From positions 68,248 through 92,247 of the forward strand of contig NZ_FQZS01000007.1 of the NCBI RefSeq assembly GCF_900142105.1: a DNA stretch of 24,000 nt, in the 5' to 3' direction. Origin of the DNA: Lutispora thermophila DSM 19022 (GTDB taxonomy: Bacteria > Bacillota > Clostridia > Lutisporales > Lutisporaceae). Positions 3,289 through 18,143 of this stretch are shown here, one piece after another. The stretch's first letter is position 1, and each line of letters begins with the position of its first letter. The notes below the pieces were generated by a model that searched no databases, had not been told where the DNA came from, and worked only from the letters and a program-made list of their open reading frames with translations. The translations under genes and the position numbers were made by a program.

Positions 3289-3987
3289 ATGGGAAAAGAC
3301 GTGATTATTGCCTGCGATTTCAGCAGCACATCAGAAACCCTCAAGTTTCTTGAACAATTCGGATCGATTCGGCCTTATGTGAAAATTGGCATGGAACTAT
3401 ATTATGCCGAGGGACCGACTATCGTTAGGGAGTTGAAAGTACGCGGTCACAAAATATTCCTTGACTTGAAGCTTCATGATATTCCCAATACTGTAAAAAG
3501 AACCATGAGGATACTTTCCTCACTCAATGTTGATATGATAAACCTTCACGCCGCCGGAACAAGCTCCATGATGGAGGCTGCCATGGAAGGAGTGATTAAA
3601 TATGATGGTTCACGTCCATTGGTGATAGCTGTCACCCAGTTGACCAGCATCAGTGAAGAACAGTTGCATAATGAACTTCTTATCAATGAATCTCTCAAAA
3701 ATACTGTTCTTGCCTATGCTGCCAATGCCAAATCCGCCGGACTGGACGGTGTGGTATGCTCCCCCTTGGAATCTCAAATCATTCATGAGAAATGCGGCAA
3801 TAATTTTATCACCGTAACACCGGGCATTCGCTTCCCTGATGGTGACAAAAGCGATCAGGTGAGGGTTACTACACCTGCACAAGCAAAGGAGTTAGGCTCA
3901 GATTACATAGTGGTTGGAAGACCTATAACACAATCTGAAGATCCAGTGTCTGCATACCATAGATGTATAAAAGATTTTCTAGTATAG
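3289..3987 (+). CDS. pyrF: orotidine 5'-phosphate decarboxylase
   Basis: 232 aa with the FLDLKLHDIPNT active-site motif. The ATG lies 2 nt after the pyrD stop. Confidence 0.93.
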   Translation: MGKDVIIACDFSSTSETLKFLEQFGSIRPYVKIGMELYYAEGPTIVRELKVRGHKIFLDLKLHDIPNTVKRTMRILSSLNVDMINLHAAGTSSMMEAAMEGVIKYDGSRPLVIAVTQLTSISEEQLHNELLINESLKNTVLAYAANAKSAGLDGVVCSPLESQIIHEKCGNNFITVTPGIRFPDGDKSDQVRVTTPAQAKELGSDYIVVGRPITQSEDPVSAYHRCIKDFLV

Positions 3988-6181: not shown

Positions 6182-6872
6182 TCATCCAGTCTTTAGTTCA
6201 ATCAGTCTTATAATATACGTGCCAGCCAACAATATTAGACTCAAAGCTGAATAACCAATCAATATGCTCGTGCCCACATCTGTTCCAACATTGCATAGCC
6301 CCGTAAAATTTAAGATATAATTATTCTAGCTAATACCTGTATACCAAATGAATGAATAAATATATCATTTGAAACAAATTTGGACTTCTACTCCATGCGC
6401 TTAAAAATAAGGCCAAAGAAGGGATAAATATGCTCCCTGCCATTATCATAGTAATATCAATATGCTGCCTTAGCAATAGCCCTTTGCAAATCAATGGCAC
6501 ATTGGGCAAAAACACTATAAGGACTCCGCAAATATAATGCGTTAAAATCTACATCCTATTGAAATATGATGTACTCTGAATCACCTCTCTAGTACTATAA
6601 TAAATGTTCCTTGTGTTTATTTCTGATATGATGCTTAAAGGCATTATCCATAAAATTGATATTATGGGGCCCTTCACCGAATCAAATGACAAAAGCAAAT
6701 ATAATCCGATGACTGCTACATACATAAAAAGTATAAAAGCATTGATACTCCGCACCACAAGCCCCAGTTCTGCATATAATAAATCCCTTAGTCTGTATTT
6801 TAGATTTCCAGCAAAAATCCTGCTCAATACATAATTATCTTGTTGTGCCTTTGCCATATTGTTTTTTAACAT
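6182..6872 (-). pseudogene. decayed polytopic membrane protein: one in-frame TAG plus one frameshift
   Basis: ORFs 6549-6872 and 6330-6515 share a frame and are separated only by TAG at 6549-6551; the read-through is ...YFNRM*ILTHYICGVLIVFLPNVPL.... A further hydrophobic piece (GLCNVGTDVGTSILIGYSALSLILLAGTYIIRLIELKTG*, ending 6182) continues in another frame. Confidence 0.4.
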
Positions 6873-6937
6873 ATCACTTCTTACAACTTGCCCATTTCTC
6901 GTTTTTTATAAATTTAAGAAGGCTGCCGCCCAACTAA

Positions 6938-7528
6938 CTATTTATTAGTTGTGCAACAACCTCCACTTCTAAAATTCTTCACCTTTCCAATAATTATCAA
7001 AATACTTAATGCAAGTATCGATACAGATATGCAAAACGAAACCCAGCTCACTCTCAGCCCCATGGCCAGTAGCATAGCACATAATTCTACTGCAAGAATT
7101 TTTCTTGCTCGCTTTTTATATACTTCCTCTTCCATTTTATCCAAGGGCTTGTTGGCATCCTCCACAGGAGCAAGGGCATAGATGATTATTGCTGCAATCA
7201 TTGCTATACATACAATATTAAACCTTGTACAAGGAATAAGTTTTATTGCCAAAAGCACTGACATAGTTAATAATATGGAAAAAAAGTAACATTTTGATTG
7301 TGTCCTTGCATGATAACCTCCTGCAAATGACCTCAACGGAATGTATGCAATCATAAACAGAAGGCTTTGCCAAACCATATTGAACAAAAGGCCTATTGCT
7401 ATTGTTGTAAGGATATTCACAATTATTAATAATCCCTGTTTTAAACCATACTCATATAAGTCTCTGTCTTCAACTTTTATGGCTCCATTGGCAATGAGCC
7501 CATCCGCAATTTTATTAATCAAGTCCAT
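6938..7528 (-). CDS. agrB: AgrB-family accessory gene regulator protein B (AgrD-processing membrane peptidase)
   Basis: 196 aa, polytopic. The stretch IAYIPLRSFAGGYHARTQSKCYFFS carries the catalytic His and Cys of AgrB. Its ATG lies 6 nt after the agrD stop. Confidence 0.88.
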   Translation of the reverse strand: MDLINKIADGLIANGAIKVEDRDLYEYGLKQGLLIIVNILTTIAIGLLFNMVWQSLLFMIAYIPLRSFAGGYHARTQSKCYFFSILLTMSVLLAIKLIPCTRFNIVCIAMIAAIIIYALAPVEDANKPLDKMEEEVYKKRARKILAVELCAMLLAMGLRVSWVSFCISVSILALSILIIIGKVKNFRSGGCCTTNK

Positions 7529-7533
7529 ATCAA

Positions 7534-7677
7534 TCAGAATTTGCGCAAATTCTCTGCACCTTTAGGCAGTTTTGGTTGGTGAATTAAGCATATACATGTT
7601 GTATTTACGTTCATTGTTGTTATAAACAAGGCAAAACTGGCAATCAAACTACTCAACTTTATTAAAGCTTTTTTCAT
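7534..7677 (-). CDS. agrD: AgrD-like autoinducing-peptide precursor (47 aa, absent from the ORF track)
   Basis: Hand translation gives MKKALIKLSSLIASFALFITTMNVNTTCICLIHQPKLPKGAENLRKF*. GGGAGG sits 8 nt upstream of the ATG. It has an amphipathic N-terminus, a Cys-containing pentapeptide, then an HQPKxPK tail like clostridial AgrD (C. perfringens ...CLWFT-HQPEEPK..., from memory). Confidence 0.85.
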   Translation of the reverse strand: MKKALIKLSSLIASFALFITTMNVNTTCICLIHQPKLPKGAENLRKF

Positions 7678-7748
7678 TACCATTACCTCCCATAAATCTT
7701 TTCATTTAGTTTTATATTACATCAAAGATATCATTTAAGCGATTAGAT

Positions 7749-7786
7749 GGTAAAACTTATATATGTTTTTGGCAAAACTTACAGTT
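7749..7786 (-). promoter_or_regulatory. LytTR-type direct-repeat box A, upstream of agrD
   Basis: GGTAAAAC at 7749-7756 and GGCAAAAC at 7771-7778, period 22 bp. It shares a roughly 38-bp consensus with boxes B, C and D. A TAATAT -10 candidate lies downstream on the minus strand. Confidence 0.7.
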
Positions 7787-7792
7787 TTTTTC

Positions 7793-8296
7793 TTAAAAAG
7801 TATTAGCAAATCTTTGATTCTTGGGAAGAAGTTCATTAGCTAATTGTACTGCCTCATTCCAATCTTTAGATGGCGCAGAAATCATCCATCCATCAGCAGA
7901 ACTAAAACTATATACACCTGATTCATTGGGCTCAAATATTTTAATCATAATCTTTTCTAACTTATCTCCAAAATAAGCATGCAGAACTGTATCGCTATTC
8001 TTTAAGCCTGCCATTCTATCTTTATTTATTATCAATGTCATTTTAGTAAAGTCAAATCGTTGGTCTTCTACATCAATAGTGCCTTCAAATGCAATTCCCC
8101 CGTCTTTTGATGGCCTATATGTTCCATTAATTGATATGGTAATGGGTACCACATCTTCCCTATTTACCATCCTGAACTTAAGTCCGTATAAAGTAGTGTT
8201 TATTGATTTGGGAGACATATAATAATAATTACATGCAACATATATTAACAATATAATTACTATCAAAATACTGATTGACTTATCTGTAATTTCCAT
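7793..8296 (-). CDS. hypothetical N-terminally membrane-anchored or secreted protein
   Basis: 167 aa. GGGAGGAG RBS 10 nt upstream. One N-terminal hydrophobic helix (SISILIVIILLIYVA) followed by a soluble domain. No recognisable family. Confidence 0.7.
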   Translation of the reverse strand: MEITDKSISILIVIILLIYVACNYYYMSPKSINTTLYGLKFRMVNREDVVPITISINGTYRPSKDGGIAFEGTIDVEDQRFDFTKMTLIINKDRMAGLKNSDTVLHAYFGDKLEKIMIKIFEPNESGVYSFSSADGWMISAPSKDWNEAVQLANELLPKNQRFANTF

Positions 8297-8839
8297 TATT
8301 ATCTAGCTCCTCCCAAGTATTTCTTGGCCCAGTTCATAATATGAATTATACTTTTTAAATATATCATATCAATGTTACATTGATCATCATTTTGCTTAAC
8401 AGCATGAAAAGAGACTAAAATCTTTTATAGGTCTGCATACACATTGTTCCATATATAATCACTTCAAAACTCTTAAATCTGTGCTTTCTCTATTTATAAG
8501 CAAATTTTGTGTAAAATATCTCCTAACTAACATTATTTTTCGCTTCATTTTAAAATAAGAAAGGCTTACTATAAAAGTGTTTATATTTATCTAGGTAGCC
8601 TTTCTTGAAACCTATTACGGAAAGTACAAATTAAAAATTTATACATGTTTTTCCAATAACCTAACACTTTTTCAGAAAAATATATACAATGTACACATTA
8701 CAGCATCTTAAAAATCAATCAGTATATGTTGAAGCAAATGATAATTAAATTTAGTTTATCTTTATAAAATCCTCATGGAAAACAAGTATCACATATAAAA
8801 ATGTCTCTACCTTAAAAGATATCCTTTAAGGAATTGAAT

Positions 8840-8877
8840 AGCAAAACTTATATGTGTTTCTGGTAAAATTTAAAATT
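8840..8877 (-). promoter_or_regulatory. LytTR-type direct-repeat box B (no ORF immediately downstream)
   Basis: AGCAAAAC at 8840-8847 and GGTAAAAT at 8862-8869, period 22 bp. Its higher-coordinate flank matches the box C flank and its lower-coordinate flank (AAAGATATCNTTTAAG) matches the box A flank. Confidence 0.6.
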
Positions 8878-8943
8878 TTGAATTGATTAGCAGAAATGTC
8901 TTGTAAAATGAAAATTTCCGGTACCTGTTTGGTGAAGGGAGCT

Positions 8944-9027
8944 TTATTTGGCATATTGCTTAAAAAGCTTCTCATCATCAGATTTCAGTATCACAAAATT
9001 TTTCTCTTGAAGCTCCTCTGCTGTTTT
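8944..9027 (-). pseudogene. internally deleted relic of the ankyrin-repeat gene
   Basis: Translates KTAEELQEKNFVILKSDDEK|LFKQYAK*. This matches residues KTTDGLQEENSVILKSDDEK and the last residues IFKQYAK of the intact 153-aa gene, without the ankyrin repeats. A degenerate copy of that gene's terminator and spacer follows (8893-8945). Confidence 0.75.
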
Positions 9028-9073
9028 TTAAAAGGCAACTTTGTCACAAATTCTTCCGCAAACAAAATTTGCA

Positions 9074-9328
9074 TCACATCAGTCGTTCCTCTGGATCACG
9101 AAATGCATCACAAATTTTATCGCATATTCCATCACATATTCCATCACATACTGAAGCAACACAATCACATATCTTATCGCATACTATACCATCACATATT
9201 ACGACTTCACCGGGATCTGGAATACCGGCAACGATAAAGCTGAATTCAAGTCTGTTTTCCATCTCAGTAATGCTCAAATTTTCAACGGAATTCAAATTAA
9301 TTGAATTCAATATACCTTTGTTATCCAT
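9074..9328 (-). CDS. RiPP precursor paralog A3 (Cys-Asp tetrad-repeat peptide), probably frameshifted at its 3' end
   Basis: 84 aa. Same AAGGAGGTGAAATT RBS as A1. The leader differs from A1 at 3 of the first 38 residues. The core has 8 Cys in [I/V]CDx units. The ending RDPEERLM* is unrelated, while the adjacent frame (9028-9078) encodes CDANFVCGRICDKVAF*, homologous to the A2 tail. Confidence 0.8.
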   Translation of the reverse strand: MDNKGILNSINLNSVENLSITEMENRLEFSFIVAGIPDPGEVVICDGIVCDKICDCVASVCDGICDGICDKICDAFRDPEERLM

Positions 9329-9421
9329 AATTTCACCTCCTTTATTTTAATCTGATGCTTAATGTTTGGATTAATTGCTAATTTTATCTTACAATAAAAA
9401 AAGTCCCTAATGGGTTAATAT

Positions 9422-9459
9422 GGTAAAATTTACATATATTTTGGGTAAAATTTAAAGTT
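9422..9459 (-). promoter_or_regulatory. LytTR-type direct-repeat box C, upstream of precursor A3
   Basis: GGTAAAAT at 9422-9429 and 9444-9451, period 22 bp. It lies about 95-130 nt upstream of the A3 ATG. Confidence 0.7.
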
Positions 9460-9485
9460 CTGCTTTGGTTGGAAGGAATGTCTCG

Positions 9486-9524
9486 TAAAATGAAAACTCC
9501 CCTCACCTGTTTGGTGAAGGGAGT
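9486..9524 (-). terminator. intrinsic terminator ending the biosynthetic operon, after the ankyrin gene
   Basis: On the minus strand, ACTCCCTTCACC-aaaca-GGTGAGGGGAGT is followed by TTTTCATTTT, starting right after the TAA at 9526-9528. Confidence 0.8.
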
Positions 9525-9525
9525 T

Positions 9526-9987
9526 TTATTTGGCATATTGCTTAAAAATCTTCTTCAGGTAGGTGTTATCTCCTTCCATTACAAGATCATACACTGACTT
9601 TCCACTGGATGTTATAACATAAGGATCTGCTCCGGCTTCCAGCAATATTTTAGCCATATCGCAATTTCCCATTACCAGCACCATCTCAATAGGATATTGC
9701 CCTTCTGAATCCTGACTGTTTATATCAACTGTTCCACTGGCTAATATCCTCTTAACTAATGCAATGTTGTTCTCCAATACTGCCTGTGTTAACATATCAA
9801 TCGTAAATTCCATATTACTAACCCTTTTCTCATCATCAGATTTAAGAATCACAGAATTCTCTTCCTGAAGCCCGTCTGTTGTCTTTGAATCAGCAGATAA
9901 AACGATGTTGTTGAAGTTCAGTAACATGATCACTGACACAAATACTGCTGCTAAAACCATTGTTGCTCTCGAACCTTTATTTAGCAT
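9526..9987 (-). CDS. signal-anchored or secreted ankyrin-repeat protein
   Basis: 153 aa. N-terminal hydrophobic segment ATMVLAAVFVSVIMLL. Ankyrin-like repeats: NIALVKRILASGTVDINSQDSEGQYPIEMVLVMGNCDMAKILLEAGADP. Confidence 0.8.
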   Translation of the reverse strand: MLNKGSRATMVLAAVFVSVIMLLNFNNIVLSADSKTTDGLQEENSVILKSDDEKRVSNMEFTIDMLTQAVLENNIALVKRILASGTVDINSQDSEGQYPIEMVLVMGNCDMAKILLEAGADPYVITSSGKSVYDLVMEGDNTYLKKIFKQYAK

Positions 9988-10036
9988 ATAATATCTCCTC
10001 CTTATTCTATTTTATTTTTTAACACCCTTAATGATG

Positions 10037-11167
10037 CTATTGAGCACAATTATCAACCTCTTTTTTTCTTATAAAGCGATTATAGAACTCTAAAAACCTA
10101 TTTGTGATAGCTCTAAAAAGAATTATTACTAAATACATATAAAATAAATTCATTAAAAGTCTCACATTAAGTTTAATATTACTGAAATCCCTAAAGTATG
10201 ACACTATGAATTTTACAATCAAAGCACCTTTTTTAATTAAAATTATTGTGAATAAAAAATATAAGAAGTAGTAAATGTTGTTTGCAACTTTACCTATTTT
10301 ATTATTCTCATAATACTGCAAAACATCTCTGAAAAACCAATATCCATCTGTTCTCATGAAAGGATGAAAATTAAAATAAAAAGTATAAAAAAGCATATTT
10401 ATACATATTAGAAAAATGCTGTATTTAGTTACTATATATAAAATAATTAATAAAACCATATATATGCCTTGCGCAAACAATCCTGCAATATTAACCAAAA
10501 TTCTTTGTTTCAAATCAAGTTCATCTATCCCTGATACATTCGTAAACATAACTGGATATATCAAATATACGGAAAAACTGATAGGTCTTAATCCTATGCC
10601 GCAGTAGCTGCACATGTATGAATGTCCAAGTTCATGAAACATGATGCCAATTATAATAATCAATAATAAAGCAAAGAAATCTGATATGTAAAAATTATCT
10701 TCTTTTTGATAGGCTGAAAAAAAACTATTAAAAGGCAATCCTAAAACAGCCACCAGCAGAACAGAGATAGACACAAGTTTAAGCATGGTATTTTCCCTTA
10801 AATTATATAAAAAGCTGTGACCAAAAAGCTTTTCTTGAATACTGCTTGAAAGCACCTGAATTTGAGGATTAAATATTTTGCGTATTATATGCTTAAATTT
10901 TTTATTGAAACTTTCATACTGTCTTTCCTTTAACACTCCAAGATCAATCAATTTGTCAAATATAACCTGACTGTTTTCTATATTTAAAGATGTTAAATGC
11001 CTTAAATACTCTTCTTTATCACCTTTTTCAGGCAGAACGGATATGAGATAAGCCACTTCTTTACTTACCTTATAGCAAGATGTCTTGTTGATTATTAAAT
11101 TCCCATTTTTATAATCCGGCATATATTCATTTTTAAATACATTAACATATTCTGAGCCAGCTCTCAT
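10037..11167 (-). CDS. membrane-embedded zinc metalloprotease, M50/site-2-protease-like (YydH-like), with a cytosolic N-terminal domain
   Basis: 376 aa. HELGH at codons 178-182 (10622-10636) lies in a TM segment. NFHPFMRTDG matches the S2P signature NxxPxxxxDG. Multiple TM helices. The first ~90 aa resemble a PqqD-like winged-helix domain (VSKEVAYLISVL...VIFDKLIDLGVLKE). Confidence 0.75.
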   Translation of the reverse strand: MRAGSEYVNVFKNEYMPDYKNGNLIINKTSCYKVSKEVAYLISVLPEKGDKEEYLRHLTSLNIENSQVIFDKLIDLGVLKERQYESFNKKFKHIIRKIFNPQIQVLSSSIQEKLFGHSFLYNLRENTMLKLVSISVLLVAVLGLPFNSFFSAYQKEDNFYISDFFALLLIIIIGIMFHELGHSYMCSYCGIGLRPISFSVYLIYPVMFTNVSGIDELDLKQRILVNIAGLFAQGIYMVLLIILYIVTKYSIFLICINMLFYTFYFNFHPFMRTDGYWFFRDVLQYYENNKIGKVANNIYYFLYFLFTIILIKKGALIVKFIVSYFRDFSNIKLNVRLLMNLFYMYLVIILFRAITNRFLEFYNRFIRKKEVDNCAQ

Positions 11168-11194
11168 ATTATCACTCGCTTTTGTTTTGCATAA

Positions 11195-12613
11195 TTACAG
11201 ATGAGGAAATAGGAAATTTAAACTATCTATGCGATCATCCTGTTCTCGCTCAGTATATATATATTTGATGGCTTCATAAATTTCATCTTTCCTTGTGCTG
11301 CAATATGGGTTATATATACTTCCATTGTTTTCTCTAGCCTGAACGCCGCATTCTCCGGCACAAAGCAGTGAGATGGAACATTCCAAACACTTATCAAGAT
11401 TAAGCAGATTTCTGTTTAGGTAATCTTCTCTCAATGAGTTAAAATAAACCTCTCCATTTTTCAGGTATCCTATTTTATAATCATCCCTGCCTGCTTCCTC
11501 ATAGCAGCCGTATATGTCTCCATATGGGTCAATGAGAAAGTTATTGGGTATATTTTGCATGCAAAATCTTGTTTTTCTGAATGGTATGCCCCTTTGAATT
11601 TTCATAAGATATGCCAATCCCTCTGCTTTTCTTCTTATGGGATGTCTGATTTTGCTTTTTATATTGATTGATTCTATTGTTGCAGCGGCTTCCATATGTC
11701 CTACAAAAGAACTGTCATCTGTTTGCTTGAAGTGATTGTGCAAAGGATGCAGATAAATATATGCGTATGGATGATTTAAAATTTCTTCCTTTTCAAGAAA
11801 ATCGTACAAGAATGCCAGTTTTTCCAAAGAATTGGCATCAATATTTATTCTTATATTCAACTTTACTTTCCTATCCAGCATTAAATGGATATTCCTTACT
11901 ATTGTATCAAATGTTGGCTTTCCAGGCTCTGAAACTCTACTTGTATCGTGATCTTCTTGGTTGCCGTCTATTGATACTTGTATGAAGTTTATTTGGCCCG
12001 GCAGAGGACCAACCAAATCCAGGTAATGTTCCAATTGAGTACAATTGGATATGGCACCTACATTGATTGAATATTTATTGGAATACTCCAATACCCTTTC
12101 TACCACATCCCTATTCCTTTTTAAAAAAGGTTCTCCTCCATATAAGGTAATGTCCAGGTCTTCTCTTGAAACATCTCTATATAACTTTTCAAAATATATG
12201 CCAAACAATTGATCCACAAATTCTTTCGTCATAACCTTATTTTCTTTTTTTCCTCTAATTGGCTTCTGATAACAGTAATAGCAATTTAGATTACATGCAT
12301 ATGATAGTAGCAACATCAAGTTGCACTCTGAAAAATCATTTTTTAAATTAAACTCATCTATTTTCTTAACAAACTTAACAAACTCTTTCTTTTCTTCTTC
12401 AGGAGTAAGATTTGTTACATGCCCTCTTCTTTGCAGGAATTCAATTTCCACATCGGCAATATCCTGGGAAGATACCACTTTATCCTTATTGCTTAGAAGT
12501 TGGCCCATCTCTTTAGAAACCTCATCTATACATCCATTGAATCCATTAAATAACAGATATGTGTCTTTAAGAGGTATTATATTTAGATATTTGCTAACAT
12601 AATAGTTTTTCAT
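11195..12613 (-). CDS. radical SAM/SPASM-domain peptide maturase
   Basis: 472 aa. CNLNCYYC (CxxxCxxC) at 12272-12295. GGEPF SAM motif. C-terminal auxiliary-cluster cysteines include the CX2CX5CX3C motif CLECSISLLCAGEC and GDIYGC. A ~100-aa N-terminal extension precedes the rSAM core. Strong RBS GAGGAAGGAG. The start lies 20 nt inside the upstream gene. Confidence 0.9.
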   Translation of the reverse strand: MKNYYVSKYLNIIPLKDTYLLFNGFNGCIDEVSKEMGQLLSNKDKVVSSQDIADVEIEFLQRRGHVTNLTPEEEKKEFVKFVKKIDEFNLKNDFSECNLMLLLSYACNLNCYYCYQKPIRGKKENKVMTKEFVDQLFGIYFEKLYRDVSREDLDITLYGGEPFLKRNRDVVERVLEYSNKYSINVGAISNCTQLEHYLDLVGPLPGQINFIQVSIDGNQEDHDTSRVSEPGKPTFDTIVRNIHLMLDRKVKLNIRINIDANSLEKLAFLYDFLEKEEILNHPYAYIYLHPLHNHFKQTDDSSFVGHMEAAATIESINIKSKIRHPIRRKAEGLAYLMKIQRGIPFRKTRFCMQNIPNNFLIDPYGDIYGCYEEAGRDDYKIGYLKNGEVYFNSLREDYLNRNLLNLDKCLECSISLLCAGECGVQARENNGSIYNPYCSTRKDEIYEAIKYIYTEREQDDRIDSLNFLFPHL

Positions 12614-14444
12614 AATAAACTCCTTCCTCTATGAACCTTTTTGTATCCAATGCAGATAAAAAATATCCATAACGGGACACATTGCTTCCGTTAGCATAAA
12701 ATGGATGAGGCACATCATTTTTTATGAAATATTCATGAATATTGCCTTTATGAATCTTATAAAAGTTGCCTTTATAAAAATCGGAGAACCATTTTTCCAA
12801 CTGCGGCTTTTGTTCTAAAAATCTTTCATATACTTCATTTGAAAAGCCCAAGCTTTGTCTGATATCTATGTCAAATTTCTTGGCAGACAGATAAACTGCA
12901 AGCCCTTCATCATAATACTTTATTAACTCATGTGGCATATTCATGCTACGCCATATGCCAGCAGTCATGAAATGTGTTAGCTCATGGGTGATGAGTCTTA
13001 ATATATCTTGCTCATCAATCCTGTCATCAGAGAGCATTATAACACGGTTTGGGTTAAAGCAATTGCATGCATTGAAATTACCTAATAATATGCGCACTAT
13101 CTCAATGTTATCAATATCTTTAAGAAAAACATCTTTGTTAATACCGAACAAAGTTTCAATTTCACCGGATAAATATTCACGGATATCTATTATATCTTTT
13201 TTTTCTATTGGGGTTATTTTTTTACTTGACAAAAATTCTTTATATCTGTAATATGAGTTACTATCCAGATTAGGCATGTCCAAGCTGTAAGTTGAAAATA
13301 TTTTTCTCAACTCTGGAAGGCCTCGGGTTAAATAATCAACATAATTATCGCAGCTTAAAATGATGTTCCTTATATGATCTGAGTGATTTGTGATATTAAT
13401 ATCAGGTTCCTTAATGGATGTTTTTATATTTGCAGATATGGGCTCATTTGTTATTTCACTTTCAATTTTAAAAGCAATAGTTTTTATAAATTCAGTATAT
13501 TCTTTCAAAAGTGATAAATCAATTTCCTCCGCTCCAAATTTACTAAAAGGAATGCCATTGTGAAAATGATTAATCTTAATAAACAGGCTTATGCTTGGTC
13601 TGTTTTCTTTTACCAGAGTTACACCTTCGCATACTCCAAAGGGAATTTCCGCTTTATACTTTTCATCTAACTGATGCATAACTCCTTCAGGGATAAACTT
13701 ATCCAGCTCTACACCATTTTGTTTTGTGCGTATACCGAAGCCATTATTGCTGTTTATCGATGAGTCTATGGCATCCATAGATATAAAATATAGATCCCTA
13801 TCATAAATTATGTTTAAAAACTCATACAATCCTGAATGACTTACCTCTTCATTAAGCGTCAAAAGTCCGTAATACTTATCAGCATAGTTTTCATATTTCA
13901 TCAGATATATGATAAGAGCAGCATTCAATATATTATCTAAGTTCCAATTTGTCAAAGTATCATTTTTTAATACAGGAGACCCATCATAATGGATGACAAG
14001 TTCACCTGAATCATAAGTTTTTATCAAATCATTATGAGCTTTAAAAAACAATGTGACGCCATCCATGCCACTTCTATGACAATGCTCTACCTCAAGTTGA
14101 TCTATACTTTCATACATTCCCGGCAAAAACACTCCAAAATTTCTGCCCACTAAATATTTTGAAGTTCTATGTCCGTACAATTTTGAGTACATATATTCCT
14201 CATCTTGACTATAGTAAAGCCTTCCTCCAGGATGATCGAGATGAGCCTGAAAGCATATCCTATTATTTTTTATTTTTTCTTGGGAATCCTCTCCTAAAAA
14301 AATATTACCGTTCCTTGTAATAAAAAAAGGTATGTTTCCTAATATAGAAGCTAAAATAGCTTTCGTCGTTTCATTCCATTTATGAAAGGGAACAATATGC
14401 AATCTGGACAGTTCTTTAACAATTTTATGATATTCTTGTATCAT
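12594..14444 (-). CDS. two-domain putative leader peptidase: N-terminal co-catalytic (M42/M20-like) aminopeptidase fold plus C-terminal HExxH zincin domain
   Basis: 616 aa. Ordered motifs AHLDHPG (H68/D70), NLDN (D170), NEEVSH (E199/E200), SMDAID and INHFH mirror the M42 metal ligands. HELTH at codons 487-491 (12972-12986) is followed by YDEGLAVY. Overlaps the rSAM gene, implying translational coupling. Confidence 0.6.
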   Translation of the reverse strand: MIQEYHKIVKELSRLHIVPFHKWNETTKAILASILGNIPFFITRNGNIFLGEDSQEKIKNNRICFQAHLDHPGGRLYYSQDEEYMYSKLYGHRTSKYLVGRNFGVFLPGMYESIDQLEVEHCHRSGMDGVTLFFKAHNDLIKTYDSGELVIHYDGSPVLKNDTLTNWNLDNILNAALIIYLMKYENYADKYYGLLTLNEEVSHSGLYEFLNIIYDRDLYFISMDAIDSSINSNNGFGIRTKQNGVELDKFIPEGVMHQLDEKYKAEIPFGVCEGVTLVKENRPSISLFIKINHFHNGIPFSKFGAEEIDLSLLKEYTEFIKTIAFKIESEITNEPISANIKTSIKEPDINITNHSDHIRNIILSCDNYVDYLTRGLPELRKIFSTYSLDMPNLDSNSYYRYKEFLSSKKITPIEKKDIIDIREYLSGEIETLFGINKDVFLKDIDNIEIVRILLGNFNACNCFNPNRVIMLSDDRIDEQDILRLITHELTHFMTAGIWRSMNMPHELIKYYDEGLAVYLSAKKFDIDIRQSLGFSNEVYERFLEQKPQLEKWFSDFYKGNFYKIHKGNIHEYFIKNDVPHPFYANGSNVSRYGYFLSALDTKRFIEEGVYYEKLLC

Positions 14445-14494
14445 AACATTTATCCTTTCTTTCGCTTTAATATCATGTTATTTCCATCATCAGT

Positions 14495-14803
14495 CTACCA
14501 GATGACCTTGTCACAGAATCTTCCGCAAACGAAATTTACATCGCATGGATATATTGTGTCACAAAAAACATCACAAACTTTATCACATATCTTGTCACAG
14601 ATATCCCCACAAATCTTATCGCATACTTTATCACAAATAGGACTGCAAATTACATCACATACACCGGTTGTACACTCAGGGCGGATTATATCTAAAATTG
14701 ATATGTCCATAATCGAATAGACAATTCTTTCTTCAGATTTTTCCAATATTAGATTGTCTTCATTGAACAGGTTAATAGTTCTAATAATATTATTCATAAA
14801 CAT
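14495..14803 (-). CDS. RiPP precursor A2 (13-Cys Cys-Asp tetrad-repeat peptide)
   Basis: 102 aa as tracked. The likely true start is the third codon (ATG at 14797), 7 nt after GGGGG. Cys-free leader ...IRTINLFNEDNLILEKSEERIVYS.... Core CTTGVCDVICSPICDKVCDKICGDICDKICDKVCDVFCDTIYPCDVNFVCGRFCDKVIW. Confidence 0.85.
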   Translation of the reverse strand: MFMNNIIRTINLFNEDNLILEKSEERIVYSIMDISILDIIRPECTTGVCDVICSPICDKVCDKICGDICDKICDKVCDVFCDTIYPCDVNFVCGRFCDKVIW

Positions 14804-14881
14804 TCCCCCAAGTTATATTTTCACATTATTCAATTTGCATAACCTGTCTAATAAACATCCGAAAGAACTAATTGAGGATTA

Positions 14882-14920
14882 CTCAAACTCATCTTTGCCC
14901 CAGCCAAAGATGAGTTTGAG
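14882..14920 (-). other. 15-bp perfect stem-loop between precursor A1 and A2 (partial terminator or RNA stabiliser)
   Basis: CTCAAACTCATCTTT (14882-14896), 9-nt loop, AAAGATGAGTTTGAG (14906-14920). There is no U-tract on either strand. Confidence 0.6.
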
Positions 14921-14954
14921 TATGTAACCTTAATTATTTTGCAAAATCAAATTG

Positions 14955-15188
14955 CTACCAAATTGCATCGCATATTTGTCCACATATTTGATCACATATT
15001 GCATCACATACTGCGGAGATGCAGTCACATATCTTATCACATACAATAGCATCACATATTCTACCATCATAATAATCCGGAACACCAGCAAAGATAAAGC
15101 TGAATTCAAGTCTGTTCTCCATTTCAGTAATACTTAAATTCTCAACTGAATTTAGGTTAATTGAGTTCAATATGCCTTTGTTTTCCAT
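14955..15188 (-). CDS. RiPP precursor A1 (8-Cys Cys-Asp tetrad-repeat peptide)
   Basis: 77 aa. RBS AAGGAGGTGAAATT. Leader MENKGILNSINLNSVENLSITEMENRLEFSFIFAGVPD. Core GRICDAIVCDKICDCISAVCDAICDQICGQICDAIW. Confidence 0.88.
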   Translation of the reverse strand: MENKGILNSINLNSVENLSITEMENRLEFSFIFAGVPDYYDGRICDAIVCDKICDCISAVCDAICDQICGQICDAIW

Positions 15189-15282
15189 AATTTCACCTCC
15201 TTTATTTCTGTTTTACTTCATGCGTTATTTATTGATAGCTATTTTTAGCTTATAATAAAAAAGCCCCCTAATGGGGGAAAGT

Positions 15283-15320
15283 GGTAAAACTTATACACAT
15301 TTTTGGTAAAATTTAAAATT
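15283..15320 (-). promoter_or_regulatory. LytTR-type direct-repeat box D, upstream of the precursor A1/biosynthetic operon
   Basis: GGTAAAAC at 15283-15290 and GGTAAAAT at 15305-15312, period 22 bp. A TATTAT/TATAAG -10 candidate lies at about 15249-15257 on the minus strand. Confidence 0.72.
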
Positions 15321-15375
15321 ATGTTTGTTTAGGAAATATATTTGTAGTAAGGCCTTCAGCTTGGATTTCTTATTT

Positions 15376-16671
15376 CTAAAAACTATGACAAAAATTATAT
15401 AAAAGAACATCTGCATAAAACATAGAGTCTGTATGTTGTATGGTTATCGCTCCATTATATTTGCCAATGGCCTTTTTTACACTCTTTAAACCAAATCCAT
15501 GATTTTCTTTATCTCTATGAGTCGTCTTAAGATCGCTGTTTTCATAGACAAGATTTCCGTCAAAGGGATTTGAGATGCTAATATAAAGAACATTTCTATC
15601 TAGCTTGATAGAAGCTTTAATGGTTTTATCCCTTTCCAATTTTGATACCGCCTCTATAGCATTATCAAACAAATTGCCAAGAATTATGCTCAAATCAAAA
15701 GGCTGGATATCTAATTTCTCAGGCATGTTCAATTCCAAATCCACTTCTATGCCAAGCTTTTTTGCCTCATTTATCTTATAATTCAATATACTATCTACCG
15801 GCATATTGCCGGATTTGATATGATTGTTTGATTCTCCGATTAAATCAAAAATTCTATGTAAATATTCCAAAGCACCTTTATTGTCGTTTTTTTCTATTAG
15901 GACCTGTAAAACTGAGATATGATTTTTTATATCATGTCTGAGAATCTTTATATTCTCATTAGATTGATTAATAATGTCAAGTTGTTTTATATAAGCATTA
16001 TTCTGCTGGTGCAGCAATTCTTTTTCTATTTTTTCGTTATAAGATCTTATCAAAGCATCATATAAATAAAATACAAAAACATTAATAATGAATAATATTG
16101 ATATACTTATCAAAATAAAATACAATTTGTATTGAGCTTCTATAGTTATCAAAATAAAGGTGGAAAAGAGAGTTCCTACAGGTATTAAAATTATTGCAAT
16201 CCAATGCATAGGAGAAATGTTTATATCATTTTTTATCATTTTGAAATTTGATAAAGCAAGCATGATCATATATGAAATTATCTTTGTACTAATTAGTGCA
16301 GCTATTAATTCTACATTGGCATCATCGCTTAATTGATTTAAGTTCATAGATTTTAACCCATACACTGTTAAAGCTTCAACAGACAGCAATATTGCATATA
16401 TGTAAATCGTTGCAATAAGTCTTGACTTCAATGAAGCTGGATAATTAAACGTTAGCAAGAAAAATAGAATAAGATTTGAAATTAAATTAACACCTGGATT
16501 GTTAAACATAATGTAAATAATAGCTATAGATAGATAATAAAGTATATAAGATATGAATTCAAAATTTTTGCTGACTGCATCATTTTCAAAGAAAAAAGTC
16601 ATAAATTTGAAAATTATATAAGTACCAAAGATATTTGACAGAAGATAAATAATATCGTAATTATCAAGCAT
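15376..16671 (-). CDS. AgrC-like (HPK10-type) membrane sensor histidine kinase
   Basis: 431 aa. About 6 N-terminal TM helices. H-box LRHDIKNHISVL, N-box LGNLFDNAIEA, G-box HGFGLKSV. Its start overlaps the response-regulator stop by 8 nt. Confidence 0.88.
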   Translation of the reverse strand: MLDNYDIIYLLSNIFGTYIIFKFMTFFFENDAVSKNFEFISYILYYLSIAIIYIMFNNPGVNLISNLILFFLLTFNYPASLKSRLIATIYIYAILLSVEALTVYGLKSMNLNQLSDDANVELIAALISTKIISYMIMLALSNFKMIKNDINISPMHWIAIILIPVGTLFSTFILITIEAQYKLYFILISISILFIINVFVFYLYDALIRSYNEKIEKELLHQQNNAYIKQLDIINQSNENIKILRHDIKNHISVLQVLIEKNDNKGALEYLHRIFDLIGESNNHIKSGNMPVDSILNYKINEAKKLGIEVDLELNMPEKLDIQPFDLSIILGNLFDNAIEAVSKLERDKTIKASIKLDRNVLYISISNPFDGNLVYENSDLKTTHRDKENHGFGLKSVKKAIGKYNGAITIQHTDSMFYADVLLYNFCHSF

Positions 16672-17395
16672 TGTTATTAACCTCTTTCTGTCTCATCTGC
16701 AAAAGCTTGTCTCTCACAGCCTTTCTGTTATGTTGGCTAATGGGCAGTATCACATTATTGGATATCCTAACTTTATCATATTGCACTTCAACTATGTGAT
16801 CATAATTTACCAGATATGATTTATGAATGGATATGAAAGGCGCTCCTCTAATCTGCCTTTGTATTATTGACAATTTGGAATAATATTCCTCTATGGTATC
16901 TTTCATAATAATGCGGATTTTTTTACCCATACTTTCAAAATATAAAATATTATTTATCGGTATTCTATAAAAACAATGACCCTTTTGATATTCAAAAATA
17001 ATGCCATTATTACGTAAAAGTCTTAAGGCTGTCATAAATACTTTCTGGATTTTCTCATATGTAAGAGGTTTTATTAGGAAATTGAGAGGCCTTATATCGA
17101 AAAGTTCCATGGCATAGCTGTCTTTTCCTGACACATAAACTATATGGGTGATATCATTAGCTATTACTTCTCTTATGAGTTTACCAATTCTTATTCCATT
17201 CATGGTCTTTAGGTCAATATCTAAAAATATTACATCATAATACACTCCTTCATGTAATGACTGGCATAATTTTTCTCCAGAATAGAATGTCTCTACAGAT
17301 ATTTCCTCGCAAAAGGTCTGTCCTATTTCCAATAATACATTTTCCATGTAGGCACATATAGCTTTCTCATCATCACATATAGCTACATTAATCAT
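16664..17395 (-). CDS. LytTR-family response regulator (AgrA-like)
   Basis: Start trimmed to the ATG at 17395 (AAGGAGGTG RBS), giving MINVAICDDEK.... REC domain with DVIFLDIDL. C-terminal LytTR domain ILYFES...ISIHKSYLVNYDHI. Confidence 0.9.
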   Translation of the reverse strand: MINVAICDDEKAICAYMENVLLEIGQTFCEEISVETFYSGEKLCQSLHEGVYYDVIFLDIDLKTMNGIRIGKLIREVIANDITHIVYVSGKDSYAMELFDIRPLNFLIKPLTYEKIQKVFMTALRLLRNNGIIFEYQKGHCFYRIPINNILYFESMGKKIRIIMKDTIEEYYSKLSIIQRQIRGAPFISIHKSYLVNYDHIVEVQYDKVRISNNVILPISQHNRKAVRDKLLQMRQKEVNNNA

Positions 17396-17468
17396 ATAGG
17401 ACACCTCCTTTAAAAGGATATTATAGAAAACTAAACCTTTATTTAACATATTTTATTTAATTTGTATA

Positions 17469-17498
17469 ATTATAGCATAAAACCTGTCCATATCTCAA
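17469..17498 (-). promoter_or_regulatory. sigmaA promoter of the kinase/regulator operon
   Basis: Minus strand TTGAGA (17493-17498), 18-nt spacer, TATAAT (17469-17474). A single TATTTTACC half-site sits just upstream (about 17505-17515). Confidence 0.5.
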
Positions 17499-17640
17499 CT
17501 TGTATTTGGTAAAATAGGGACAAAGTAGGATGATAGTGAAATGCTTCAAGCTAGCAACTCAAATGCAACACTAACAAAAAAACAAGGAGAACATTTTCTT
17601 CATCCCTCTCTGGTTAATTGATCTTGGATAAATTAAGAAG

Positions 17641-17679
17641 GCTGATGGATAACTGACTGCTTGTCAGTTATCCATCAGC
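17641..17679 (-). terminator. hairpin terminator after the hsp20 gene
   Basis: Perfect 17-bp stem GCTGATGGATAACTGAC / GTCAGTTATCCATCAGC with a 5-nt loop. Weak T-run (CTTCTTAATTT) on the minus strand. Confidence 0.6.
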
Positions 17680-17690
17680 CCCTATTAATA

Positions 17691-18143
17691 CTATTTGATC
17701 TCTATTCTGTTTCTCTTCTTTGGAGTTGGTTCCTTTTTAGGCAGCACTATTGTTAGGACTCCGTTTTCAAACTTTGCAGTAACCTTGTCTTCGATTACAT
17801 TTTCTACATAGAAGCTTCTGCAGAAGCTGCCGCTTCTTCTTTCTCTTCTAATGTAGTTCTCCTTTTCCACATTTATTTCCTCGTTTCTTTCTACAGCAAT
17901 GGTAAGCCTGTCATTGTCAAGTTCAATGTTTATATTTTCCTTGTTTACTCCTGGCAAATCTGCTTCTACAATGTATTCCCTATCATTTTCCTTTACATCC
18001 ACTCTCATCTGAGTGTTCTCCATGAACCAAGCTGGCATAAAGGAATCATTGAAGAAATCGTCAAATAAATTATCTATGTCGAAAATATCTCTGCTTTTGT
18101 TAGCCAGTGATTTATTTCTTCTGCCATATGGAATTAGAAACAT
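17691..18143 (-). CDS. Hsp20/alpha-crystallin family small heat-shock protein
   Basis: Start trimmed to the ATG at 18143 (GGAGGTG RBS 7 nt upstream). Alpha-crystallin domain VDVKENDREYIVEADLPGVNKENINIEL...GVLTIVLPK. Confidence 0.9.
   Translation of the reverse strand: MFLIPYGRRNKSLANKSRDIFDIDNLFDDFFNDSFMPAWFMENTQMRVDVKENDREYIVEADLPGVNKENINIELDNDRLTIAVERNEEINVEKENYIRRERRSGSFCRSFYVENVIEDKVTAKFENGVLTIVLPKKEPTPKKRNRIEIK

Follow-up and report, generated by a model that had tools for sequence, protein, structure and literature searches.

The 24-kb window analysed here, a stretch of Lutispora thermophila DSM 19022 DNA in which the relevant genes are all on the minus strand, contains four pairs of direct repeats (boxes A to D) that are very likely the operators of an AgrA-like response regulator encoded at 16664-17395. 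The idea that these are LytTR operators came from a first-pass annotation of the same DNA, and is supported by statistics, geometry, gene content and conservation across species. That support includes the finding of four pairs where none is expected, and the presence in the window of genes for a LytTR regulator, a kinase, AgrB and AgrD. From the promoter anatomy, the domain content of the encoded proteins and the conservation of the boxes in other species we infer binding, activation and dependence on cell density. Literature searches found no paper on this locus or on agr in Lutispora. The boxes, with position weight matrix (PWM) scores in bits for their two half-sites, are:

7749-7786, minus strand: box A, right behind the stop codon of the gene for p167 (a 167-aa protein) and upstream of agrD-agrB; 20.5 and 20.5
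8840-8877, minus strand: box B, upstream of a stretch free of open reading frames (ORFs); 19.0 and 16.5
9422-9459, minus strand: box C, upstream of the gene for an 84-aa peptide precursor; 17.9 and 19.9
15283-15320, minus strand: box D, between the kinase stop codon (15376) and the gene for a 77-aa precursor; 19.5 and 20.0

Each box is made up of two GGYAAAAYTTA half-sites on the plus strand, with a period of exactly 22 and a gap of 11 nt. Read along the genes, the half-site is T(A/G/T)TAA(G/A)TTTT(A/G)CC, and box D is TTTAAATTTTACC-N9-TATAAGTTTTACC. The eight half-sites form four same-strand pairs, none of them inverted. In box B the proximal half-site is TAAGTTTTGCT; on the plus strand the first half-site begins AGC instead of GG, which is the single mismatch, and 21 of 22 half-site positions are kept. 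The four boxes are present where the first-pass annotation had placed them, with the 22-bp period it described, and they are co-oriented with the minus-strand genes as it proposed: all pairs are on the plus strand, and orthologous boxes in other organisms read along the direction of the genes. The targets it listed were right as a set, but their order from A to D was wrong. Box A lies ahead of agrD-agrB, B ahead of the ORF-free stretch followed by p167, C ahead of the 84-aa precursor, and D ahead of the 77-aa precursor with the rest of a biosynthetic operon.

With up to one mismatch, GGYAAAAYTTA has 12 occurrences in the window where 3.8 would be expected; the four pairs account for eight of them. 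The complete pair pattern (11-nt gap, up to two mismatches) is found four times, and not once in 100 dinucleotide-preserving shuffles. A PWM built from the eight half-sites gives each of them 16.5-20.5 bits; the runner-up in the window, at 15.4 bits, is inside a thiolase gene and has no partner. A degenerate fifth copy, said to carry a 5-nt insertion, aligns in register at 8631-8668 (minus strand), so that the insertion is not needed; its half-sites score -0.4 and -8.7 bits, and it is a dead relic rather than a site.

Downstream of the boxes, predicted -10 hexamers are found at a nearly constant distance, with predicted starts about 7 nt past them:

15247-15252, minus strand: -10 of the box D promoter, TAAGCT, 30 nt past the box; predicted start near 15240
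9386-9391, minus strand: predicted -10 of the box C promoter, TAAGAT, 30 nt past the box; predicted start near 9379
7714-7719, minus strand: predicted -10 of the box A promoter, TAATAT, 29 nt past the box; predicted start near 7707
8804-8814, minus strand: two candidates for the -10 of box B, TAAGGT (8809-8814, 25 nt past the box) or TAGAGA (8804-8809, 30 nt past the box), the second without the conserved final T

In an alignment of ten box regions, invariance outside the box is confined to the T and A at the start of the TAnnnT hexamer, whose final T is nearly invariant. Eleven of 12 promoters have 29-30 nt between box and -10, often with a TG upstream of the hexamer, the exception being box B (25 nt, or 30 nt with a defective hexamer). 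At the -35 position the best match to TTGACA has only one to four of six bases, and the box ends 5-8 bp ahead of the nominal -35. Given a start about 7 nt past the hexamer, the half-site centres fall near -48 and -70. To judge from sequence, a fixed distance to the -10 with no usable -35 is the geometry of an activator-dependent promoter. Together with the 22-bp period it matches published LytTR promoters, in which 11-13 bp separate the two repeats and these lie 4-11 bp upstream of the -35 (PMC6193735), AgrA dimers sit on direct repeats immediately before promoters whose spacing is suboptimal (PMC4227749), and targets of the Clostridioides difficile regulator RgaR have critical G residues at -51 and -72 (PMC10602386).

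A candidate for the protein that binds the boxes is encoded in the window itself, along with a full agr set (AgrB, AgrD, an AgrC-like kinase, and a regulator with receiver and LytTR domains):

16664-17395, minus strand: response regulator with receiver and LytTR domains (PF00072, PF04397), 243 aa; presumed box binder
15376-16671, minus strand: AgrC-like GHKL membrane histidine kinase, 431 aa (HATPase_c_5, E = 9e-25; weak match to the AgrC NCBIfam model)
17469-17498, minus strand: sigma-A promoter of the regulator-kinase operon, TTGAGA-18-TATAAT with an upstream TG; 11 of 12 matches
7534-7683, minus strand: agrD, autoinducer precursor, ...NVNTTCICLIHQPKLPKGAENLRKF (TIGR04223, E = 1e-12)
6938-7528, minus strand: agrB, membrane peptidase processing AgrD (PF04647, E = 3e-40)

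The regulator is 100% identical to a Lutispora thermophila LytR/AlgR-family protein. Its LytTR domain is matched at E = 1.7e-15, and receiver residues D8, D9, D59, and K109 are invariant across the family. The nearest solved structure is that of ComE (4cbv); the AgrA LytTR-domain structure, reportedly also solved, is not among the sequence matches of the regulator at E <= 0.001. Kinase and regulator both score far under the cut-offs for the staphylococcal equivalogs, making them relatives rather than equivalogs. A single autoinduced promoter for all four genes, as at P2 of Staphylococcus aureus, is not found here: a box precedes only agrD-agrB. The regulator-kinase operon has its own conserved sigma-A promoter and no LytTR box, so that only the signal arm is predicted to be autoinduced and the regulator-kinase operon probably is not. 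A lone half-site that had been proposed upstream of it (about 17508) dissolves on scoring, at 2.3 bits where 74 positions in the window reach at least 3 bits; it is not conserved in the 80%-identical ortholog L024, whereas the adjacent sigma-A promoter is. The p167 gene has a near-consensus promoter (TTGATA-16-TATAAT, 8345-8372) and no terminator lies between it and box A/agrD (7787-7795), so read-through from p167 may feed the basal agrD-agrB expression that autoinduction requires as a primer.

Informative relatives of the locus (L-numbers) came from homologues of the regulator, a family search for which gave 1875 relatives at E <= 1e-20, and from loci with a diverged p616. Contigs with an identical p616, the 616-aa protein of the peptide operon, are 100% identical to the window throughout and so provide no footprinting information. 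A box pair lies within a few bases of the kinase stop codon, reading along the genes, in L025 (regulator 64% identical to that of the window), L117 (56%), L030 (55%), L118/L119 (54%), L031 (53%), and L034 (50%), the last with the half-site variant TAAGTTTCTAC. In most relatives carrying a box behind the kinase it is followed by agrD-agrB; in L117 (2186-3091) it precedes a DUF6345 gene and not agrD. In L111 and L112, where p616 is 81% identical, the order is ankyrin gene, terminator, box, agrD, agrB. All eight orthologous loci share the exact 22-bp period of the four window boxes. Mean pairwise identity among the orthologous sites is 0.78 for the half-sites, 0.74 for the spacer, and 0.46-0.48 for the flanks. 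AgrD is conserved too (...NVNT[TN]CI[CA][LF]IHQPK[LM]PK...), with orthologs in L025, L030, L031, L111, and L118.

With more distant regulators the half-site changes. A PWM pair at 16 bits has a single match in 665 kb of such loci, and this is at the closest of them, L031. In agr loci with regulators 32-42% identical (L039, L045, L057, L067, L079, L090, L091, L093, L101, L103, L107, L109, L110, and L037), a direct-repeat pair with a period of 21-22 is found between the kinase gene and agrD, with differing half-sites: CAGTTTCACCAT, GATTTATTACAT, TTTTTTACATG, TTTTTGACAG, TAGTTTCGCCA, and others. L037 departs from this layout in having its repeat pair in the divergent agrD-regulator intergenic region. 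Distant regulators that keep the architecture and have other half-sites are what would be expected of cognate operators; by this comparison the repeat architecture is family-wide, with a half-site that drifts with the regulator. One locus, L116 (3-5657; p616 42%, LytTR regulator 34%, and kinase 32% identical), in which a distant form of the peptide cluster adjoins a different LytTR regulator-kinase pair, has an 890-bp intergenic region and no recognisable repeat pair, and the peptide clusters of L113 and L114 have no agr genes or boxes within the available DNA.

Along the direction of transcription the locus begins with the sigma-A promoter, the regulator, the kinase, and box D. The 77-aa precursor, a strong stem-loop, the 102-aa precursor, p616, a radical SAM/SPASM protein, an M50-like protease, and an ankyrin protein follow. 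After the ankyrin gene come a strong terminator, box C, the 84-aa precursor, ankyrin remnants, a decayed copy of the terminator, and box B; after box B, 540 nt free of ORFs, p167, box A, agrD, and agrB. The features not yet given are:

14955-15188, minus strand: 77-aa Cys/Asp-repeat precursor, first gene behind box D
14495-14803, minus strand: 102-aa precursor, second of the operon
12594-14444, minus strand: p616, 616 aa, examined with AlphaFold2 and Foldseek
11195-12613, minus strand: radical SAM/SPASM peptide maturase; nearest solved structure CteB (5wgg)
10037-11167, minus strand: intramembrane HExxH M50-like metalloprotease (daptide_HExxH, E = 3e-17, under the cut-off)
9526-9987, minus strand: ankyrin-repeat protein, closing the operon
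9483-9527, minus strand: intrinsic terminator that ends the main operon, immediately upstream of box C; -24.5 kcal/mol, z = -7.2, then a U-run
9074-9328, minus strand: 84-aa precursor behind box C
8297-8839, minus strand: ORF-free stretch behind box B
7793-8296, minus strand: p167, membrane-anchored, 167 aa, no assigned function; own sigma-A-like promoter at 8345-8372

Several points weigh against reading all four boxes as operators of the 16664-17395 regulator. Boxes C and B are inside larger duplicated segments, so that their similarity is partly recent common descent. Box B has a deviant -10 and no ORF of at least 30 aa downstream. The protein that binds them could instead be a different LytTR regulator whose gene lies elsewhere. 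The general LytTR consensus, attributed to Nikolskaya and Galperin in 2002, is said to be [TA][AC][CA]GTTN[AG][TG]; TAAGTTTTA agrees with it at seven of nine positions, and three of the eight window half-sites have A where the consensus has G. LytTR sites in the literature also stray from the general consensus (PMC6193735).

The explanation that competes best with the operator reading, and which we regard as possible if somewhat doubtful, is that the boxes are alike merely as copies of one duplicated promoter segment, with one or two of them functional and B, perhaps C, decaying relics. Duplication there evidently was: 9101-9347 and 14961-15207 share 81% identity, 8808-8972 and 9390-9554 share 78%, and 8969-9031 is a piece of the ankyrin gene that matches 9827-9889 at 81%. 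From these segments the interval 7787-9460 reads as a partly deleted, lineage-specific re-duplication of the operon; it is absent, as is p167, from the relative L111, which has the ancestral arrangement only. By the same comparison boxes A and D are ancestral and C and B part of the re-duplication, C being a lineage-specific duplicate of the box D module. There are signs of decay as well. The copy of the terminator upstream of box B (in 8895-9031) has fallen to -4.1 from -24.5 kcal/mol, and box B at the normal spacing lacks the conserved final T of the -10. The 84-aa precursor behind box C is a chimera, the first three quarters like the 77-aa precursor and the tail frame-shifted: its +1 frame (9030-9328) runs on as CDANFVCGRICDKVAF to a stop codon, which is the tail of the 102-aa precursor, and the chimera is without the C-terminal Trp found at the end of the other two precursors in the window and of both in L111. 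The dead box at 8631-8668 is an example of such decay.

Against this, the duplicates have stayed more alike in the half-sites than in spacer or flanks. Among the four window copies mean pairwise identity is 0.89 for the half-sites, 0.67 for the spacer, and 0.47-0.53 for the flanks; box B holds its 21 half-site positions beside a decayed terminator; box C retains a normal TAAGAT at 30 nt; and A and D are clearly ancestral and conserved across species.

The output of box B is uncertain. The ORF-free stretch behind it has no match in Rfam; blastn, tblastx, and blastx comparisons with the remainder of the window matched only the dead box; and folding of 8540-8805 gave no significant structure (z = -1.4). 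It may be a small RNA, a leader of p167, or decayed duplicate DNA. RNAIII, VR-RNA, and SpoZ are precedents for regulatory RNAs (PMC10602386), and by analogy box B could drive one; equally, it could be a decaying copy.

A second alternative, that the boxes are operators of a different regulator, either a LytTR paralogue or an unrelated protein, seems improbable. Clostridia often encode several LytTR regulators, and the family search gave its 1875 relatives, but in eight other organisms the box travels with the regulator-kinase pair, always directly behind the kinase gene, and diverged regulators go with correspondingly diverged repeats.

A GC hairpin, CCCCC-ATTA-GGGGG followed by a T-run (15264-15279, minus strand; -9.6 kcal/mol), lies between box D and its -10, at the place of the -35. 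It is also present in L025 (2858-2873), L111 (5961-5976), and L112 (5986-5999), and its outer pair co-varies (C-G, A-T, G-T). Hairpin and T-run could shield the promoter by stopping transcripts that read through from the kinase gene. Such a hairpin behind some of several intergenic copies might also suggest a dispersed non-coding element, like a repetitive extragenic palindrome (REP) or a MITE (a miniature transposable element with inverted repeats), or a signal at the RNA level, but this is very improbable: the repeats are direct rather than inverted and have no terminal repeats, the distance from box to -10 is fixed, boxes A and B, like L030, L031, and L034, have no such hairpin, and an Rfam search of 6800-17800 gave nothing for the repeat, only spurious matches to microRNA models. 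Nor is the pattern dispersed: there are four copies in the 24-kb window, every one at a promoter, and an exact-pattern scan of one genome per species (185,579 species, the L. thermophila genome itself not among the matches) found 17 scattered matches in unrelated phyla, none near a homologue of any protein of the locus.

If the boxes are operators of the AgrA-like regulator, the circuit might work as follows. At low cell density, regulator and kinase would be made constitutively from their own sigma-A promoter, and basal expression of agrD-agrB, possibly including read-through from p167, would give a little autoinducer, AgrB processing AgrD to a cyclic peptide with the predicted ring CICLI. 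The AgrC-like kinase would sense this autoinducer and phosphorylate the regulator, a dimer of which would bind both direct half-sites of boxes A, D, and C and recruit RNA polymerase to the TAnnnT -10 promoters that have no usable -35. At box A this would close an autoinduction loop on agrD-agrB and amplify the signal. Box D would switch on the peptide operon, with its two precursors, double peptidase, radical SAM maturase, M50-like protease, and ankyrin protein, and box C would drive the additional chimeric precursor. Box B would be a duplicated copy of uncertain output.

Paired LytTR repeats before several operons of a peptide locus are textbook for pln, blp, com, and agr, and operator control as such is of a well-known kind, conceptually nothing new. 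Like agr P2/P3 of S. aureus, the window has a LytTR regulator fed by an AgrC-type kinase and an AgrB/AgrD autoinducer, a repeat period of 21-22 bp, and positive feedback on agrBD as the predicted outcome. The half-sites differ, TAAGTTTTACC here and ACAGTTAAG for S. aureus AgrA, and so does the gene order, regulator-kinase and then agrD-agrB rather than agrBDCA. Here regulator and kinase are on their own constitutive promoter without a box, and the main output would be a modified-peptide operon in place of RNAIII. The sites of S. aureus AgrA are likewise two direct repeats upstream of promoters with a suboptimal core (PMC4227749).

RgaR of C. difficile and VirR of Clostridium perfringens are, similarly, clostridial LytTR regulators that act at few promoters through paired direct repeats of a different half-site sequence. 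The targets of RgaR include agrB1D1, hypothetical genes, and a small RNA (PMC10602386), and the fourth half-site base of the window boxes (G or A) falls near -50 and -72, against -51 and -72 for the critical G residues of RgaR targets. The gene for RgaR, however, is not next to that of its kinase, and AgrD1 does not activate RgaR, whereas in the window a single locus holds the complete circuit; a small-RNA target, at box B, is here a possibility only.

The LytTR-controlled bacteriocin loci, with PlnC/PlnD in Lactobacillus plantarum, BlpR and ComE in streptococci, and HdrR/BrsR in Streptococcus mutans, resemble the window in having several operons per peptide locus with an identical direct-repeat pair before a weak promoter, the repeats 11-13 bp apart and ending 4-11 bp before the -35 (PMC6193735). 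ComE is also the closest solved structure to the window regulator. These systems use a double-glycine pheromone exported by an ABC transporter and make unmodified class II bacteriocins, whereas here an AgrD-type cyclic peptide would be made by AgrB, and the product would be a radical-SAM-modified Cys/Asp-repeat peptide.

The more novel part of the locus is the peptide cluster, and its nesting in an agr locus by duplicated operator modules. In a broader and rather speculative version, which we think unlikely as a whole, this would be a quorum-sensing plug-in, an undescribed class of radical-SAM peptide nested in the agr locus through operator-promoter duplication, with box B giving an RNAIII-like RNA. 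The narrower operator model is testable, specifying consensus, spacing, and predicted starts for the agr-type system of a thermophilic digester anaerobe, and it predicts that a rare radical-SAM peptide cluster stays silent until quorum. If it is correct, the product might be obtained with synthetic autoinducer or by placing the operon behind a constitutive promoter. The comparative series suggests that LytTR operators drift together with their regulators, making the distant loci a data set for the evolution of LytTR specificity, and that duplication of a single operator-promoter module can bring new genes into a quorum-sensing regulon.

The precursors (14495-15188, 9074-9328) have a Cys at every fourth residue, mostly in Cys-Asp pairs, giving a 12-nt period in the DNA. 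They match no NCBIfam or Pfam family, and the radical SAM enzyme hits several models of peptide maturases, each of them far under cut-off; the cluster may represent an undescribed peptide class. The p616 protein has no match in Pfam and no sequence match in the PDB, and falls in only eight sequence clusters among 5.8 billion proteins. In a confident AlphaFold2 model (pLDDT 81) its N-terminal half has the fold of M42/TET aminopeptidases (Foldseek E = 8e-12 to 2wyr, 4p6y), and its C-terminal half has an invariant HELxH motif, with H487, E488, and H491 invariant; it is a probable two-headed leader peptidase on the strength of this model.

In the close relatives L111 (1-160) and L112 (1-185), the first precursor is preceded, at a distance of ~105 nt, by the 3' end of a second agrD. 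The peptide operon of the closest relative appears to be co-transcribed with an agrD copy, one that L. thermophila has lost. The window also has no trace of a LanB gene; in L111 a gene for a LanB-type lanthipeptide dehydratase (6838-10020) lies behind agrB, and in L025 a 67-aa ORF (3751-3954), suspected to be a truncated LanB start, lies behind agrB and is followed by an ISL3 transposase gene.

Right behind the stop codon of the 77-aa precursor is a perfect 17-bp stem-loop (14879-14922, minus strand; -34.2 kcal/mol, z = -6.7), without a U-run. Its Rfam match to mir-576 is spurious. Lantibiotic operons have mRNA-stabilising or attenuating hairpins behind their precursor genes, and by analogy this stem-loop, which is kept in L111 (~447-490) with compensatory changes, is probably a candidate stabiliser or attenuator of the precursor mRNA.

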